Part shown: positions 11,187 to 31,408 of the stretch, in pieces
How the letters are laid out: every line of letters starts with the position of its first letter
Position numbering within the stretch: the first letter of the stretch is position 1
DNA from: Escherichia coli
GTDB lineage: Bacteria; Pseudomonadota; Gammaproteobacteria; Enterobacterales; Enterobacteriaceae
Assembly (NCBI RefSeq): GCF_016026235.1
Contig: NZ_CP065613.1
Strand: one strand, 5' to 3'
DNA length: 64,000 nucleotides
Program-made: the position numbers and the translations under genes
The notes under the pieces: generated by a model
What the model was told of the DNA's origin: nothing
What the model saw: the letters and a program-made list of their open reading frames with translations, nothing else
The model's database searches: none

Positions 11187-12532
11187 AATTTACCCAACGT
11201 CTTAGTCTGCGCGTCAGGCTGACGCTAATCTTTTTAATTCTGGCCTCGGTGACCTGGCTGCTTTCCAGCTTTGTCGCCTGGAAACAAACAACGGATAACG
11301 TCGATGAATTGTTCGACACCCAACTGATGCTGTTTGCCAAGCGGTTAAGTACGCTCGATCTCAACGAAATCAACGCGGCGGATCGCATGGCACAGACGCC
11401 AAATAAATTAAAACACGGTCATGTTGATGACGATGCGCTGACCTTTGCCATCTTTACCCACGACGGCAGAATGGTCCTTAACGATGGCGATAACGGAGAA
11501 GATATTCCTTATAGCTATCAACGGGAAGGTTTTGCTGACGGGCAACTGGTGGGCGATAAAGATCAATGGCGTTTTGTCTGGATGACCTCACCTGATGGCA
11601 AATATCGCATCGTTGTTGGTCAGGAATGGGAATACCGTGAAGACATGGCGCTGGCGATTGTTGCCGGGCAATTGATCCCGTGGCTGGTCGCACTGCCGAT
11701 TATGTTAATCATCATGATGGTACTATTGGGTCGTGAACTCGCTCCGCTGAACAAACTGGCGCTGGCGCTGCGTATGCGTGACCCTGACTCGGAAAAACCA
11801 CTAAACGCGACTGGCGTACCCAGCGAAGTGCGTCCGTTGGTTGAGTCGCTAAATCAACTGTTCGCCCGCACACATGCGATGATGGTTCGTGAACGACGCT
11901 TTACCTCCGACGCAGCTCACGAACTACGTAGCCCGTTAACGGCGCTGAAAGTGCAAACCGAAGTTGCGCAGCTTTCTGACGATGATCCGCAAGCGCGGAA
12001 AAAAGCGCTGCTTCAATTACATTACGGGATCGATCGCGCTACTCGTCTGGTTGATCAACTGCTCACTCTATCGCGGCTGGACTCACTGGATAACCTTCAG
12101 GACGTCGCGGAGATCCCGCTTGAAGATCTCCTGCAATCGTCGGTGATGGATATTTACCACACGGCGCAGCAGGCGAAAATTGACGTGCGACTGACACTCA
12201 ATGCCCACGGCATCAAACGCACCGGACAACCGCTATTGCTAAGTTTGTTGGTGCGAAATTTGCTGGATAACGCCGTGCGCTACAGTCCACAGGGCAGCGT
12301 GGTAGACGTCACGCTGAATGCTGATAACTTCATCGTGAGGGATAACGGCCCCGGTGTGACACCAGAGGCACTGGCGCGAATTGGCGAACGCTTCTATCGC
12401 CCACCCGGACAAACCGCTACCGGCAGCGGGCTTGGGCTATCGATTGTCCAGCGAATCGCCAAATTGCATGGCATGAATGTTGAATTTGGGAATGCGGAAC
12501 AAGGTGGATTTGAGGCGAAGGTAAGCTGGTAA
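11183..12532 (+). CDS. qseC: sensor histidine kinase QseC
   Basis: 449-aa ORF, H-box AAHELRSPL, two TM segments. Confidence 0.93.
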
Positions 12533-12544
12533 CTTCTCTGTCTA

Positions 12545-12577
12545 TGAGAGCCGTTAAAACGACTCTCATAGATTTTA
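12545..12577. terminator. bidirectional hairpin between convergent qseC and ygiZ
   Basis: tctatgagag...ctctcataga perfect 10-bp stem, followed by ttttact. Confidence 0.6.
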
Positions 12578-12910
12578 CTAATAGCAAAATATAAACCGTC
12601 CCCAAAAAAGCCACCAACCACAAACCAGACAAATACCGAGCGAGAATACATATACCCAAAACTCGAACATTTCCCGCATAAAGAGTTTTCTTAAGATAAG
12701 AATAATAAGTGGCGTAAGAAGAAAAAATGCTGCAATCATTGCTTGCAATATACGATCTTCGCCTGAAACGGAAGGTATACTGCAAATATTGCCTCCCGAG
12801 TCAAGCATCCAGTCATACTTATTGAAAGCAAAAAAAGCATCTATTAACCAATAAGTAAGCATTATGTATAATAATGCTTCAAATATTGATAGTAGTTGTT
12901 TTTTTAACAT
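12578..12910 (-). CDS. ygiZ: inner membrane protein YgiZ (about three hydrophobic helices); candidate immunity protein for the upstream effector
   Basis: 110-aa hydrophobic ORF; ATG lies 6 nt after the stop of the upstream gene; A+T-rich like the two genes upstream. Confidence 0.8.
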   Translation of the reverse strand: MLKKQLLSIFEALLYIMLTYWLIDAFFAFNKYDWMLDSGGNICSIPSVSGEDRILQAMIAAFFLLTPLIILILRKLFMREMFEFWVYVFSLGICLVCGWWLFWGRFIFCY

Positions 12911-12916
12911 GTCTGA

Positions 12917-13627
12917 TTACTCATTAATCAATTTTTTGATATGTTCTCTAATCTCTAACAACCTCATACCATAAGAGATGAATTTATAATCATCTGTATC
13001 ACGCGCAGGCAAATTATTAATTAAATAAATAAAAAACCCCAAATCTCGTTCAACACCACGATTATATCTAATACCAGCCATAATATACTGCTCATTCGTC
13101 ATATACAGTGTTGCCGAAGAGGGATAATCAAAAAGGGCAAGATCTCTTAAATGAGTAGCAGCAATTTGAAACGTAAAATCATCTTCCATTAGGCATGTCG
13201 CTAACTCTAACTGATTTCTGGTAGTTAATTCTGAAGGGTCAAGACCTAGAGTAATCGCTGCGGTTCGTATTTGTATACCCATTGAGCCAAATGATGTTTT
13301 ATTTTCAGGCATATCTAACAATCCAATCATTCTTTTTGTTTCATATATCTGAAACTTATAATTTTCAGGCATACCTCCTGACTCAATCCAGGCCACACCG
13401 CCCAGTAACTCTGGACGAATCCCAGCGGCATATGCATGTTTAATTATTTTGTCCCTATTATATTGTACATATGCATCTTTATAAGCATTTAAATAATATA
13501 CTCCCGAACGGCGACGCGAATCATTTTTTCCTAACTTCCAGAGTAAAACGTCCATTTCATCCCATTTACGGAACTTAGTTTGTGGAATTGTACAATAGCT
13601 ATTTTTTATAGTGAGATCGCTTTTCAT
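12917..13627 (-). CDS. putative Hcp-associated effector with lytic-transglycosylase/lysozyme-like (GH23-like) motifs
   Basis: ORF track gives 12917..13654 with a TTG first codon overlapping hcp; ATG at 13627 (MKSDLTIKN...) sits 2 nt after the hcp stop. Motifs AWIESGG, GSMGIQI and AGIRYNRG resemble the ES / G-x-Q / YN-G signature of SLT-type muramidases (e.g. MltE QQESGGNPNA...GLMQL). A+T-rich; no signal peptide. Confidence 0.55.
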   Translation of the reverse strand: MKSDLTIKNSYCTIPQTKFRKWDEMDVLLWKLGKNDSRRRSGVYYLNAYKDAYVQYNRDKIIKHAYAAGIRPELLGGVAWIESGGMPENYKFQIYETKRMIGLLDMPENKTSFGSMGIQIRTAAITLGLDPSELTTRNQLELATCLMEDDFTFQIAATHLRDLALFDYPSSATLYMTNEQYIMAGIRYNRGVERDLGFFIYLINNLPARDTDDYKFISYGMRLLEIREHIKKLINE

Positions 13628-13629
13628 AT

Positions 13630-14109
13630 TTAAAAAACCCTTTCTTCCCAACAACTATATGATTCCGTACTCGCGATATGGTGCTTCCATGTTATATTTT
13701 TATAATTAAGAACAATAACCTCTTCCGGTTGATTACCCGCATGTGTAATTGAGTGTGGATAACAAGTCAGAATATTCGATAAATGTGCCCCTTGCAATTC
13801 AATTGTGTAAAACCTTTCAATACAACCGCCAGAATTAATTCTATAAAAATTAAATATAGCTGATAACTCTTCATTTTCAGAAAGAGCAGCATTTAATAAA
13901 GGGGAGGATTTATCTATTGGCTTGTAAAATTTTATGGGGTGATGCACTACATTATATTCTCGACTTAAAGAATGGTCGAACTGCAAAACAAAAATTTCAT
14001 CCACATGATTTATTTGATATTTATTACCAATAGATGCATACGAACCACAGCCCTCAGAGATCAAACCTTGTGTTTTCCCTTTAATTGATAAGTATATGAT
14101 ATTTGACAT
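13630..14109 (-). CDS. hcp: type VI secretion system tube protein Hcp (TssD family), orphan copy
   Basis: 159-aa ORF; IYLSIKGKTQGLISEG, IDKSSPLL and YKNITWKH match conserved Hcp blocks; GGAG Shine-Dalgarno 9 nt upstream; A+T-rich. Confidence 0.8.
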   Translation of the reverse strand: MSNIIYLSIKGKTQGLISEGCGSYASIGNKYQINHVDEIFVLQFDHSLSREYNVVHHPIKFYKPIDKSSPLLNAALSENEELSAIFNFYRINSGGCIERFYTIELQGAHLSNILTCYPHSITHAGNQPEEVIVLNYKNITWKHHIASTESYSCWEERVF

Positions 14110-14358
14110 ATATATTCTCCATGATTATTTTTTCCGAAAAGCTCCTGTATCATTTGCATAATACATCTCTCCTGTGGGAACTTATGGGAAGTTGATTTCA
14201 GTATTGTCATTTTCAGAAAATATTTATCCTGCATCGGTGAGTCAGAGCAAGATCAGACTTTTGCTAAATTCGCAAAAGACTTTGCACATTTTGCTAATTT
14301 CACCGTACCGCTCTGTGACGTACTATAGTCGGCAAACGTCTCACCTTGAGGTTAAAAA

Positions 14359-14940
14359 ATGAGCAACATCCTGATTATCAACGGCGCGAAAAAATTCGCC
14401 CACTCCAATGGTCAACTGAACGACACCCTGACCGAAGTCGCGGATGGCACACTGCGCGACCTCGGGCATGATGTCCGCATCGTTCGCGCCGACAGCGACT
14501 ACGATGTCAAAGCGGAAGTACAAAACTTTCTCTGGGCTGATGTGGTGATCTGGCAGATGCCAGGCTGGTGGATGGGCGCGCCGTGGACAGTGAAAAAATA
14601 TATTGATGATGTATTCACCGAAGGTCATGGAACGCTGTATGCCAGCGATGGCCGTACCCGCAAAGATCCGTCAAAAAAATACGGTTCCGGCGGCCTGGTA
14701 CAGGGCAAAAAATATATGCTTTCTCTGACCTGGAACGCACCAATGGAAGCCTTCACCGAAAAAGATCAATTCTTCCACGGCGTTGGCGTCGACGGTGTGT
14801 ATCTGCCGTTCCATAAAGCAAACCAATTCCTTGGCATGGAACCGCTGCCGACATTTATCGCTAATGACGTGATAAAAATGCCTGATGTTCCCCGCTATAC
14901 TGAAGAATATCGCAAGCATCTTGTGGAAATTTTTGGTTAA
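14359..14940 (+). CDS. mdaB: NADPH:quinone oxidoreductase MdaB
   Basis: 193-aa ORF MSNILIINGAKKFAHSNGQLN...; synteny. Confidence 0.93.
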   Translation: MSNILIINGAKKFAHSNGQLNDTLTEVADGTLRDLGHDVRIVRADSDYDVKAEVQNFLWADVVIWQMPGWWMGAPWTVKKYIDDVFTEGHGTLYASDGRTRKDPSKKYGSGGLVQGKKYMLSLTWNAPMEAFTEKDQFFHGVGVDGVYLPFHKANQFLGMEPLPTFIANDVIKMPDVPRYTEEYRKHLVEIFG

Positions 14941-30113: not shown

Positions 30114-31408
30114 TCTGAGGGATCCCCAGAAAATTTAGTAAACCATTATCATATTGGTATACCGTTGCTGTAGAACTTTCAGCCCTGCGTCAAATGACAG
30201 TGTGTTTAGTATGAGTGGAGAATGTCGAATCACATTCTCCGCCAGTTTTAATAACGAGATGACTCGCCTGTGCTTCACTGTATTTGCCTGATATTTATGA
30301 TGTATCCCTTTGTTTTCCAGGCTGAAACCGCTTAACCACATAATGATACTGGCTAATGTTGCGATCAGACTCAATACCGTGACCCGCCCGGATGAATGAC
30401 TGGCACCAAACCGTAGTCCAAATCCCCAGCGAGGATTTTTTTCATCCCTGAAATTTTGCTCAATTTGCATTCTACGGCTGTATAATTTCATTACCTGTTT
30501 TGGCGAGAACTCAGTACTGTTTGTGAAAATAAACCATGGTGATTTCCCGGCAGTACGAGCTTTAGCCGTCACCGATGGTCTGGTTGCTCTTTCCTTCGAG
30601 CGTTTAAATCTACGACCTTTAGGCTTACTTTTATAAAGATAAAAATGCCCTTCATGTTGTGCATTTTTATCTCGACCCAGCAGGCCTTCACCTAAATAAA
30701 TTGCTGTCGTTGATGCTTTTGTGCCTGAGTCCGACACCTTTTCCCAGCCATTACCAACATTGTAATAATGATTGCCCAGTACCCGGCAAATATAGGTCCA
30801 GCCACGGGAGCGGAGCTGTTGGAACCATCGCCCCTGAAAACCGGCATCTGTAATAACAATGACATCAGTCCCGGGGGAAAAGCACTCAGCAAGCGATTCC
30901 AGAAAACGCTCATGTACATCTGCATTCGCTGTCTGTGATGATGGAACGACACAACTCATCAACGGTAAAGAACGCCCGTCACATGCCAGGCTTGCCCGCA
31001 AAAGCTGAAAACGAGAGGCATGATAAGCACTCCAGTCAATGAGTATCACAACACGAGACATTCCCGCGTAATCTTTTGGGTAATTCGCTGAAAAATGGTG
31101 GAAACCTCATTTTGCAAATGTCGATTCCCCAACAGTCGATCCACCCGCTTTATTTTGTTTTTAACTGATGCCGTACCGGTTAAATGACGCCCGATACTGG
31201 TAAGTGTGAGGGAAGCGCCATTTATTACAGCATTAGTTGCGTCAATCAGTGATTTTTGACGGTAAAGATGCAAAGGGGCCAGTATATTGTTAAGGAAATT
31301 TTGGCATAATGAACGTGCAGGCATAGTGGTGATCTCCTTGAAATTGTTAGCACAATCAATTAGATCACATCTCACTATGCCTGTCTTGTTTTCTGGGGAT
31401 TCCTCAGG
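30114..31408 (-). mobile_element. IS10-like insertion sequence (IS4 family), about 1.3 kb
   Basis: terminal inverted repeats CTGAGGGATCCCCAGAAAA / CTGAGGAATCCCCAGAAAA (IS10 ends are CTGA..GATCCCC); 9-bp direct repeats; transposase homologous to IS10 Tnp. Confidence 0.85.
30135..31375 (-). pseudogene. IS10-like DDE transposase split into two ORFs by a frameshift
   Basis: ORF 31375..31046 (LTLTSIGRHLTGTASVKNKIKRVDRLLGNRHL, like IS10 Tnp N-terminus) and ORF 31061..30135 (ILIDWS...VITDAGF...RMQIEQNFRDEK) are in different frames; IS10 Tnp is one 402-aa ORF. Confidence 0.65.

Follow-up and report, generated by a model that had tools for sequence, protein, structure and literature searches.

Described pairs of a cell wall–degrading toxin and its immunity protein include Tse3–Tsi3, the muramidase of the Pseudomonas aeruginosa H1 type VI secretion system (T6SS) and its immunity protein, and the glycoside-hydrolase effector families Tge/Tgi. 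Islands built around hcp were reportedly described in Pantoea and Erwinia by De Maayer in 2011, and arrays of orphan immunity genes in Vibrio cholerae are said to have been described by Kirchberger in 2017. Here, we analyze a 64,000-nucleotide stretch of Escherichia coli DNA (RefSeq assembly GCF_016026235.1, contig NZ_CP065613.1; referred to as the window), in which the small gene ygiZ lies directly downstream of a gene for a 236-residue protein, the putative effector, and a stand-alone hcp gene. An earlier note on this DNA had proposed that YgiZ is the immunity protein of this cassette and an orphan immunity gene in genomes that lack hcp; our analysis makes it likely that YgiZ is the cognate immunity protein of the 236-residue putative effector.

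Orphan immunity genes are kept after effector loss or replacement in the hcp islands of Pantoea and in V. cholerae, where they are read as protection against kin in which the effector persists (PMC9796082, Carobbi 2022). The window locus shares with the Pantoea and Erwinia islands an hcp gene followed by a putative effector–immunity pair, as well as the retention of the putative immunity gene without the effector, but it is a free-standing three-gene cassette outside of a T6SS cluster and is sometimes plasmid-borne. Unlike the orphan arrays of Pantoea, Erwinia, and V. cholerae, orphan ygiZ stands alone as one gene, is under a regulated promoter of its own, and is fixed in most of the species. 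Acquired interbacterial defense, in which orphan immunity genes are carried on mobile elements, was reportedly described in Bacteroidales by Ross et al. in 2019. Lone genes of the YgiZ family (DUF2645) on a conjugative plasmid and on a probable integrative conjugative element recall that system, but each is one gene and not part of an array associated with a recombinase, and its protective role is putative.

No sequence similarity to Tse3–Tsi3 or Tge/Tgi was detected in Pfam, NCBIfam, or PDB sequence searches, and whereas Tsi3 and Tgi are generally known as soluble periplasmic proteins or lipoproteins, YgiZ is predicted to be a three-helix integral membrane protein. In this respect, YgiZ resembles the polytopic proteins that confer immunity to pore-forming colicins and to T6SS effectors that target membranes (Cai/Cei, Tsi4, Sip6, and Psi1), which are likewise small three- to four-helix inner-membrane proteins encoded beside a toxin gene and acting at the membrane; those proteins counter membrane-inserting toxins, whereas the partner of YgiZ is predicted to fold as a soluble glycosidase and lacks hydrophobic segments. 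This partner shares its fold and three signature motifs with Family 1 lytic transglycosylases (Slt70, MltC, MltD, and MltE; PF01464, glycoside hydrolase family 23 (GH23)), but falls below the Pfam SLT model, carries no export signals, and resides in a toxin-like cassette; it could be a transglycosylase or a hydrolase. Our literature search found no paper that mentions DUF2645, and the ygiZ papers that it did find cover regulation, solvent tolerance, and screens, with none on T6SSs. The pair is likewise not described in searchable E. coli T6SS surveys, in large-scale effector–immunity catalogues, or in the literature on orphan hcp genes, orphan immunity, and the Nissle 1917 T6SS, and looks like a new effector–immunity family within a well-known kind of system.

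A three-gene hcp–effector–ygiZ cassette

The gene order in the window is parC, ygiV, ygiW, qseB, qseC, ygiZ, the 236-residue protein gene, hcp, mdaB, ygiN, and parE, with the following features defining the cassette and its proteins.

12533..14254: A+T-rich accessory island (hcp–effector–ygiZ) of ~1.7 kb between qseC and mdaB, recognized by composition, with breakpoints from alignment with K-12 and O157:H7
13630..14109, minus strand: hcp, a stand-alone ("orphan") gene for a T6SS tube protein of 159 residues and the first gene of the cassette
12917..13627, minus strand: gene for the putative Hcp-linked cargo effector, also called as 236 residues by RefSeq ("hypothetical protein")
13382..13384, minus strand: codon of Glu82, the predicted catalytic glutamate (in WIESGG), its position read from the sequence
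12578..12910, minus strand: ygiZ, 110 residues with an ATG start and a TAG stop, encoding a DUF2645 three-helix protein, the proposed cognate immunity protein
12752..12841, minus strand: YgiZ residues 24–53, an acidic loop (isoelectric point 4.05) with a conserved NKYDWM motif and the invariant Cys43, from alignments, charge distribution, and the positive-inside rule
12584..12586, minus strand: codon of Cys109, the second family-invariant cysteine, in the predicted periplasmic C terminus, from an alignment of 20 DUF2645 proteins

The GC content is 31–39% over positions 12450–14400 versus about 50–57% in the flanking qseC and mdaB, and ygiZ shares this A+T-rich composition, as the earlier note had stated. 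In O157:H7, qseC runs directly into the mdaB upstream region, and the alignment shows the whole island to be absent. The three genes are packed in an operon-like manner: the hcp stop is 2 nt from the start of the 236-residue protein gene, and the junction between the latter and ygiZ reads GAG TAA TCAGAC ATG on the minus strand, which leaves a 6-nt spacer between stop and start and upholds the translational coupling proposed previously. The first gene encodes a bona fide TssD/Hcp protein (Pfam T6SS_HCP, 5.6e-19; TIGR03344, 198 bits versus a cut-off of 58.9; RefSeq Hcp family). No T6SS core genes are found within 20 kb on either side of the cassette, and a distant blastn search with hcp returned no paralogues, hence locating no T6SS clusters by that route.

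The 236-residue putative effector

The putative effector (27.4 kDa) lacks a hydrophobic N terminus, signal peptide, lipobox, and transmembrane segment by sequence analysis. Its predicted fold is lytic-transglycosylase/lysozyme-like (GH23-like), with MltE most similar, and its sequence harbors the three signature motifs E-S, G-x-x-Q, and Y-N-x-G. Glu82 is invariant in 18 close homologues and in a cross-phylum alignment that includes Streptomyces and Nostoc. Fold and motifs support the earlier assignment of this protein as a peptidoglycan hydrolase, as a predicted activity. A Pfam search gives no match even at E ≤ 10, the SLT model PF01464 not being reached, NCBIfam also gives none, and a PDB sequence search with the effector profile yields only chance-level matches; a faint match to PF01464 is present only in some Streptomyces homologues. 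Linkage to hcp, the lack of a Sec/Tat signal, and a toxic-type enzymatic fold with conserved catalytic residues are properties by which T6SS cargo effectors are recognized, and the downstream ygiZ is directly adjacent, co-oriented, and covaries in presence with the effector, as immunity genes do.

A homologue search with the effector retrieved 34 proteins, all from Enterobacterales. The effector also matches phrog_11932 at 1.7e-29, a match that we do not take as evidence for phage origin; such an origin was considered and rejected, with no relative confirmed in IMG/VR (effector alignment scan) or in 50,697 phage records (tblastn). Some of the more distant relatives retain a small membrane partner. 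On the Cronobacter dublinensis IncFIB plasmid pA137-2 (L027:3983-4952), a 36% identical homologue is followed 1 nt on by a 98-residue three-helix protein that lacks the DUF2645 cysteines, with no hcp in the flanking DNA examined. In Streptomyces, the domain is free-standing or C-terminal in proteins of about 410–460 residues, and at three loci (L029:2194-3887, L034:2501-4047, and L035:2501-3438) the stop of its gene overlaps the start of the next, which encodes a ~103-residue protein in which hydropathy indicates two or three hydrophobic segments and which has a conserved WD[ED] loop and an RWW motif; this arrangement may represent a Gram-positive toxin–immunity or export module. Two Streptomyces loci also encode a small protein of 141–151 residues upstream of the SLT-like homologue. 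In Nostoc, the domain forms the C terminus of a protein of >1,400 residues. Homology of the Streptomyces and Cronobacter partners to DUF2645 was rejected on HHalign probabilities of 0.7% and 2.8%, respectively, and we call them analogous rather than homologous. The reuse of one domain behind varied N-terminal regions together with a small membrane partner fits a polymorphic-toxin module, and would also suit a holin-like role of the partner.

Two metagenome homologues are longer. In P0002 (325 residues), Hcp residues 1 to ~99 continue in frame into the effector from residue 12 at a short RF/C microhomology; this is either an artefact of assembly or a natural Hcp–toxin fusion that arose by deletion and is similar to Hcp-ET proteins. 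P0005 (314 residues) is similar in length, with an effector coverage of 82%.

YgiZ and the DUF2645 family

YgiZ matches Pfam DUF2645 (PF10840; NCBI "YjeO family") with E = 3.9e-10 over residues 13–109, and is labeled "DUF2645 family protein" by RefSeq in the record of E. coli O121 RM8352, which is 100% identical to the window over the stretch compared. The dN/dS ratio (nonsynonymous to synonymous substitution rates) between Escherichia and Citrobacter alleles is 0.2–0.4; given this value and the Pfam match, we regard ygiZ as a real gene. A DUF2645 profile search against 1.84 billion cluster representatives retrieved 31 clusters; like that of the effector, this family is tiny. Hydropathy places three hydrophobic helices at residues 5–23, 54–72, and 84–102, and the AlphaFold2 (AF2) secondary structure places helices at residues 1–27, 50–77, and 81–107, so that the earlier description of YgiZ as a small polytopic membrane protein holds as a prediction. 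Because the Lys and Arg residues cluster at the N terminus (MLKK) and in the short 73–83 loop while loop 1 is acidic, the positive-inside rule predicts a cytoplasmic N terminus, with loop 1, the C terminus, and both invariant cysteines in the periplasm.

In an alignment of 20 DUF2645 proteins, with identities as low as ~21%, only Cys43, Trp100, Gly104, and Cys109 are invariant, and Tyr32, Trp34, and Phe102 are nearly so. The conservation of the two cysteines and their predicted placement on the same side of the membrane suggest a Cys43–Cys109 disulfide that staples the loop to the C terminus, and we propose that the loop formed by residues 24–53 is the effector-contact surface.

K-12 MG1655 encodes a second DUF2645 gene, yjeO, which harbors both invariant cysteines and aligns to the family with an HHalign probability of 97.5%. 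Its start overlaps the end of yjeN by 4 nt; YjeN is a soluble protein of 104 residues with no Pfam match, and the yjeN/yjeO locus (4385393-4386018; L030:7394-8019) could be another orphan immunity pair or array. Proteins of 148–172 residues annotated as "DUF2645" in many Shigella and some E. coli (P0080 and related 164-residue proteins) cover 55–68% of YgiZ and are probably truncated or fused (pseudogenized) ygiZ alleles.

Linkage of effector and DUF2645 genes across Enterobacterales

Wherever an effector homologue has a readable context, a DUF2645 gene follows it: this is the case in E. coli, Citrobacter, Pseudocitrobacter, Serratia, Chania, Pectobacterium, Erwinia, Rahnella, and one sequencing-run contig. 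In every such cassette, the DUF2645 gene starts −14 to +7 nt from the effector stop, and hcp is linked in all 12 of the enterobacterial cassettes examined. The cross-species counts are small, and a genome-contig scan with a narrower DUF2645 alignment, A1, gave seven loci. The pair is found in at least seven unrelated neighborhoods, plasmids included.

Citrobacter: qseC/mdaB site, as in E. coli
Pectobacterium: between pagP and eamA
Erwinia sorbitola: between a yfbT-like gene and yfbR
Chania: island with integrase and insertion sequence genes
Serratia fonticola: conjugative-type plasmid, beside traI/traX
Rahnella: 553-kb plasmid, effector only 40% identical
Serratia sp. JSRIV002: effector 42% identical, pair intact, hcp downstream on the opposite strand
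Pseudocitrobacter, Serratia sp. H1w, and P. zantedeschiae: various neighborhoods
Sequencing-run contig: 1.8-kb contig only

The comparison across species that the earlier note had called for, of DUF2645 genes with hcp–effector pairs, is thus positive. Identities to the window proteins are 55–76% for Hcp, 56–73% for the effector, and 28–61% for YgiZ, which makes the putative immunity protein the fastest-evolving of the three. In one Citrobacter contig (L010), the effector gene is frameshifted and ygiZ is intact.

The Chania island carries a further lysozyme-type toxin/immunity-like pair ~3 kb downstream of the cassette (C. multitudinisentens CP007044.2, L007:9287-10314), in which the gene for a Pesticin-domain protein (204 residues) overlaps that for a weak LprI (lysozyme-inhibitor-like) match. 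Among PLSDB entries, NZ_OL790696.1 (4.80 Mb) and NZ_CP141089.1 (4.94 Mb) match ygiZ, are chromosome-sized, and are probably mislabeled chromosomes; NZ_MG591698.1 (354 kb), which carries the cassette at 99% identity, may be a plasmid with captured chromosomal DNA or a misassembly.

Orphan ygiZ in the E. coli population

We surveyed 5,426 complete E. coli genomes. Of these, 1,261 have the entire 2-kb cassette; taken singly, the effector occurs in 1,261, hcp in 1,263, and ygiZ in 4,598; every effector-positive genome has the full cassette. About 3,340 genomes (62%), including K-12, BLK strains, and one O111:H8 strain, harbor ygiZ without hcp and the effector, and about 830 (15%), O157:H7 among them, lack both cassette and ygiZ, which is therefore an accessory gene rather than a universal one, so that the universal presence named by the earlier note as refuting its proposal is not observed. 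Among the strains with the cassette are Nissle 1917, ATCC 25922, the type strain ATCC 11775, UTI89, and avian pathogenic E. coli (APEC) strains, the last of which are reported to carry T6SS1 and T6SS2 (PMC5874247).

Alignment confirms that K-12 has ygiZ without the two upstream genes. K-12 YgiZ is 94% identical to the cassette allele, has only one conservative substitution (D38E) in the loop predicted to lie in the periplasm, and could therefore still be cognate to the effector. Homology between the K-12 and cassette loci ends 22 nt inside the 5′ end of ygiZ, beyond which K-12 has a different upstream segment of 163 nt. The first seven codons (window 12889-12910 versus K-12 L001:1990-2011) differ accordingly, with MLKKQLLS in the cassette allele and MLKQKIKT in the orphan, because the recombination breakpoint lies inside the gene; Escherichia whittamii has the orphan-type N terminus. 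A relaxed tblastn search of orphan loci found no effector or hcp remnants, and this absence rules out K-12 as a recent, simple deletion of the cassette. The orphan state appears to be old, since E. whittamii shares the orphan arrangement and an upstream segment that is 89% identical to that of K-12. The dN/dS between K-12 and E. whittamii orphan genes is 0.42; the orphan is thus an intact homologue of a cassette gene with no adjacent effector and under purifying selection, as is typical of orphan immunity genes. The K-12 ygiZ promoter is activated by BglJ–RcsB (PMC3950696).

Further lone DUF2645 genes are carried by the P. carotovorum conjugative plasmid Drgb3, by one metagenome contig, where two lie in tandem, and by Serratia oryzae (NZ_MOXD01000020.1, L023:3420-4321), where the gene directly follows a 63-residue/91-residue toxin–antitoxin-like pair within a probable integrative conjugative element (a TraD-like 698-residue open reading frame is nearby). 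Loss of the effector with retention, and sometimes mobility, of the small gene fits the pattern of orphan immunity genes.

Other features of the window

Two noncoding features flank the cassette genes.

12540..12573: inverted repeat between the convergent qseC and ygiZ stops, a two-part stem of 8 + 3 pairs, −18.1 kcal/mol (12534-12578 folded)
14110..14358: hcp–mdaB divergent intergenic region, presumed site of the cassette promoter

The inverted repeat is a possible bidirectional terminator that was not detected by a T-run–dependent terminator scan, and a consensus promoter and terminator scan of the cassette found sites no more numerous than in shuffled sequence. Elsewhere in the window, yqhG (roughly 580-1510; L039:8181-9108), which is another BglJ–RcsB target (PMC3950696), and the fimbrial chaperone gene yqiH (roughly 30370-31120; L039:37973-38720) are frameshifted pseudogenes in the RM8352 annotation.

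Proposed function of YgiZ and alternative explanations

We propose that hcp, the 236-residue protein gene, and ygiZ constitute one mobile three-gene T6SS auxiliary cassette. The effector would be made in the cytoplasm without a signal peptide, would most likely be carried by its cognate Hcp, and would be injected into the periplasm of neighboring cells by a T6SS encoded elsewhere, where its lytic-transglycosylase/lysozyme-like domain, with Glu82 as the predicted catalytic residue, would cut peptidoglycan glycan strands. YgiZ would reside in the inner membrane with its N terminus inside and three helices, and its periplasmic surface, formed by the loop of residues ~24–53 and the C terminus and probably stapled by the Cys43–Cys109 disulfide, would bind and block effector arriving from sister cells. 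Where hcp and the effector were lost or never present, strains would retain ygiZ, under its own promoter, as an orphan immunity gene against effector-bearing attackers, thereby protecting even strains without a T6SS.

Several observations weigh against this proposal. To our knowledge, T6SS effectors that degrade peptidoglycan are countered by soluble periplasmic proteins or lipoproteins (Tsi1, Tsi3, Tai, Tgi, and TsiV3) and not by polytopic ones, and YgiZ exposes only ~30 residues; a polytopic immunity protein may mean that the enzyme works beside the membrane. An AF2 model of a fused effector-(GGGGS)6-YgiZ chain, built with a paired alignment, reached a predicted template-modeling score of only 0.52, with a predicted local distance difference test score near 60 in the loop, and shows no confident interface. 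Several distant DUF2645 genes occupy core chromosomal sites with no effector nearby (P. parmentieri after uvrD, Xenorhabdus, and K-12 yjeO), as would also suit a housekeeping role at the membrane, and the same orphan pattern could also mark a membrane protein with an independent function, which is the main rival. In its specific form, YgiZ would be a general envelope or membrane stress protein of an Rcs/BglJ-controlled regulon affecting membrane or solvent tolerance, with its adjacency to the effector reflecting a shared integration hot spot or hitchhiking. BglJ–RcsB activation of the K-12 promoter and the many effector-free DUF2645 genes speak for such a role, as does an effect unrelated to the effector, in that ygiZ overexpression raises sabinene tolerance and betters cell morphology (PMC7181518). 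Recurrence of the pair in unrelated neighborhoods and on plasmids, with overlapping or near-abutting frames, argues against it, as do the foreign A+T-rich composition that ygiZ shares with the island and its absence from about 15% of E. coli genomes, and we consider a stress-protein function improbable.

Less probable still is a phage-type lysis or "type 10 secretion"–like module, consisting of a muramidase and a holin-like protein, in which YgiZ passes the enzyme across the inner membrane of the producer. A ~100-residue three-helix protein does lie beside a muramidase-like enzyme that has no signal peptide, this architecture recurs with SLT-like proteins in Streptomyces and on the Cronobacter plasmid, where the flanking DNA examined contains no hcp, and the effector matches phrog_11932. 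However, hcp is linked in 12 of 12 enterobacterial cassettes, and no relative was found in IMG/VR or the phage records. YgiZ itself is unlikely to be holin-like: it ends in WGRFIFCY right after helix 3 and has no charged C-terminal tail in the cytoplasm of the kind usual in holins, and the residues conserved in its family fall on the predicted periplasmic side. A lone holin in ~60% of E. coli genomes is also hard to explain, and T7-driven ygiZ overexpression in BL21 is beneficial, improving growth under stress, and not lytic (PMC7181518).

We give equally little weight to a role of the 236-residue protein as a peptidoglycan-remodeling enzyme that aids T6SS assembly, like MltE or TagX, with YgiZ as its membrane anchor or regulator. 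The lytic-transglycosylase fold and the similarity to MltE would suit this function, and secretion systems are generally known to recruit such enzymes, but the protein has neither signal peptide nor lipobox and so could not reach its own periplasm by Sec, and it is encoded with an orphan hcp and no T6SS core genes within 20 kb. In Nostoc and Streptomyces, its domain moreover lies at the C terminus of proteins that are very large or have several domains, as is the case in polymorphic toxins, and a lone ygiZ would be purposeless in K-12, which is generally known to lack a T6SS. Finally, that YgiZ is an adaptor-like accessory factor that stabilizes, loads, or secretes the effector in the producer, as the tight translational coupling and the generally known need of some T6SS effectors for dedicated partners might indicate, is very doubtful, since known adaptors (DUF4123, DUF1795, and DUF2169) are cytoplasmic and soluble, the conserved surface of YgiZ is predicted to be periplasmic, and orphan copies persist with nothing to load.

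Implications

With YgiZ as the probable cognate immunity protein, the cassette would define a previously unnamed T6SS effector family present in uropathogenic E. coli, APEC, Nissle 1917, ATCC 25922, and plant-associated Enterobacterales, and would provide a testable function for ygiZ and, through its homology, yjeO, both of them uncharacterized in K-12. For a peptidoglycan glycosidase, an immunity protein embedded in the membrane would be mechanistically unusual. A bolder idea, which we offer tentatively and think more likely wrong than right, is that DUF2645 proteins (YgiZ and YjeO) are the first example of polytopic proteins, embedded in the membrane, that confer immunity to a cell-wall toxin cleaving glycans, and that an SLT-like toxin with a ~100-residue three-helix partner is an ancient module moved between delivery systems across phyla; if so, the effector would act not on the mature sacculus but at the outer face of the inner membrane, where its target would be the synthase complexes or glycan strands that are nascent or linked to lipid II. 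If our proposal for YgiZ is true, ~60% of complete E. coli genomes, including those of K-12 and BL21 strains used as T6SS "prey," would already be immune to one effector, and such pre-existing immunity would bear on the interpretation of competition assays and on strain exclusion in the gut.
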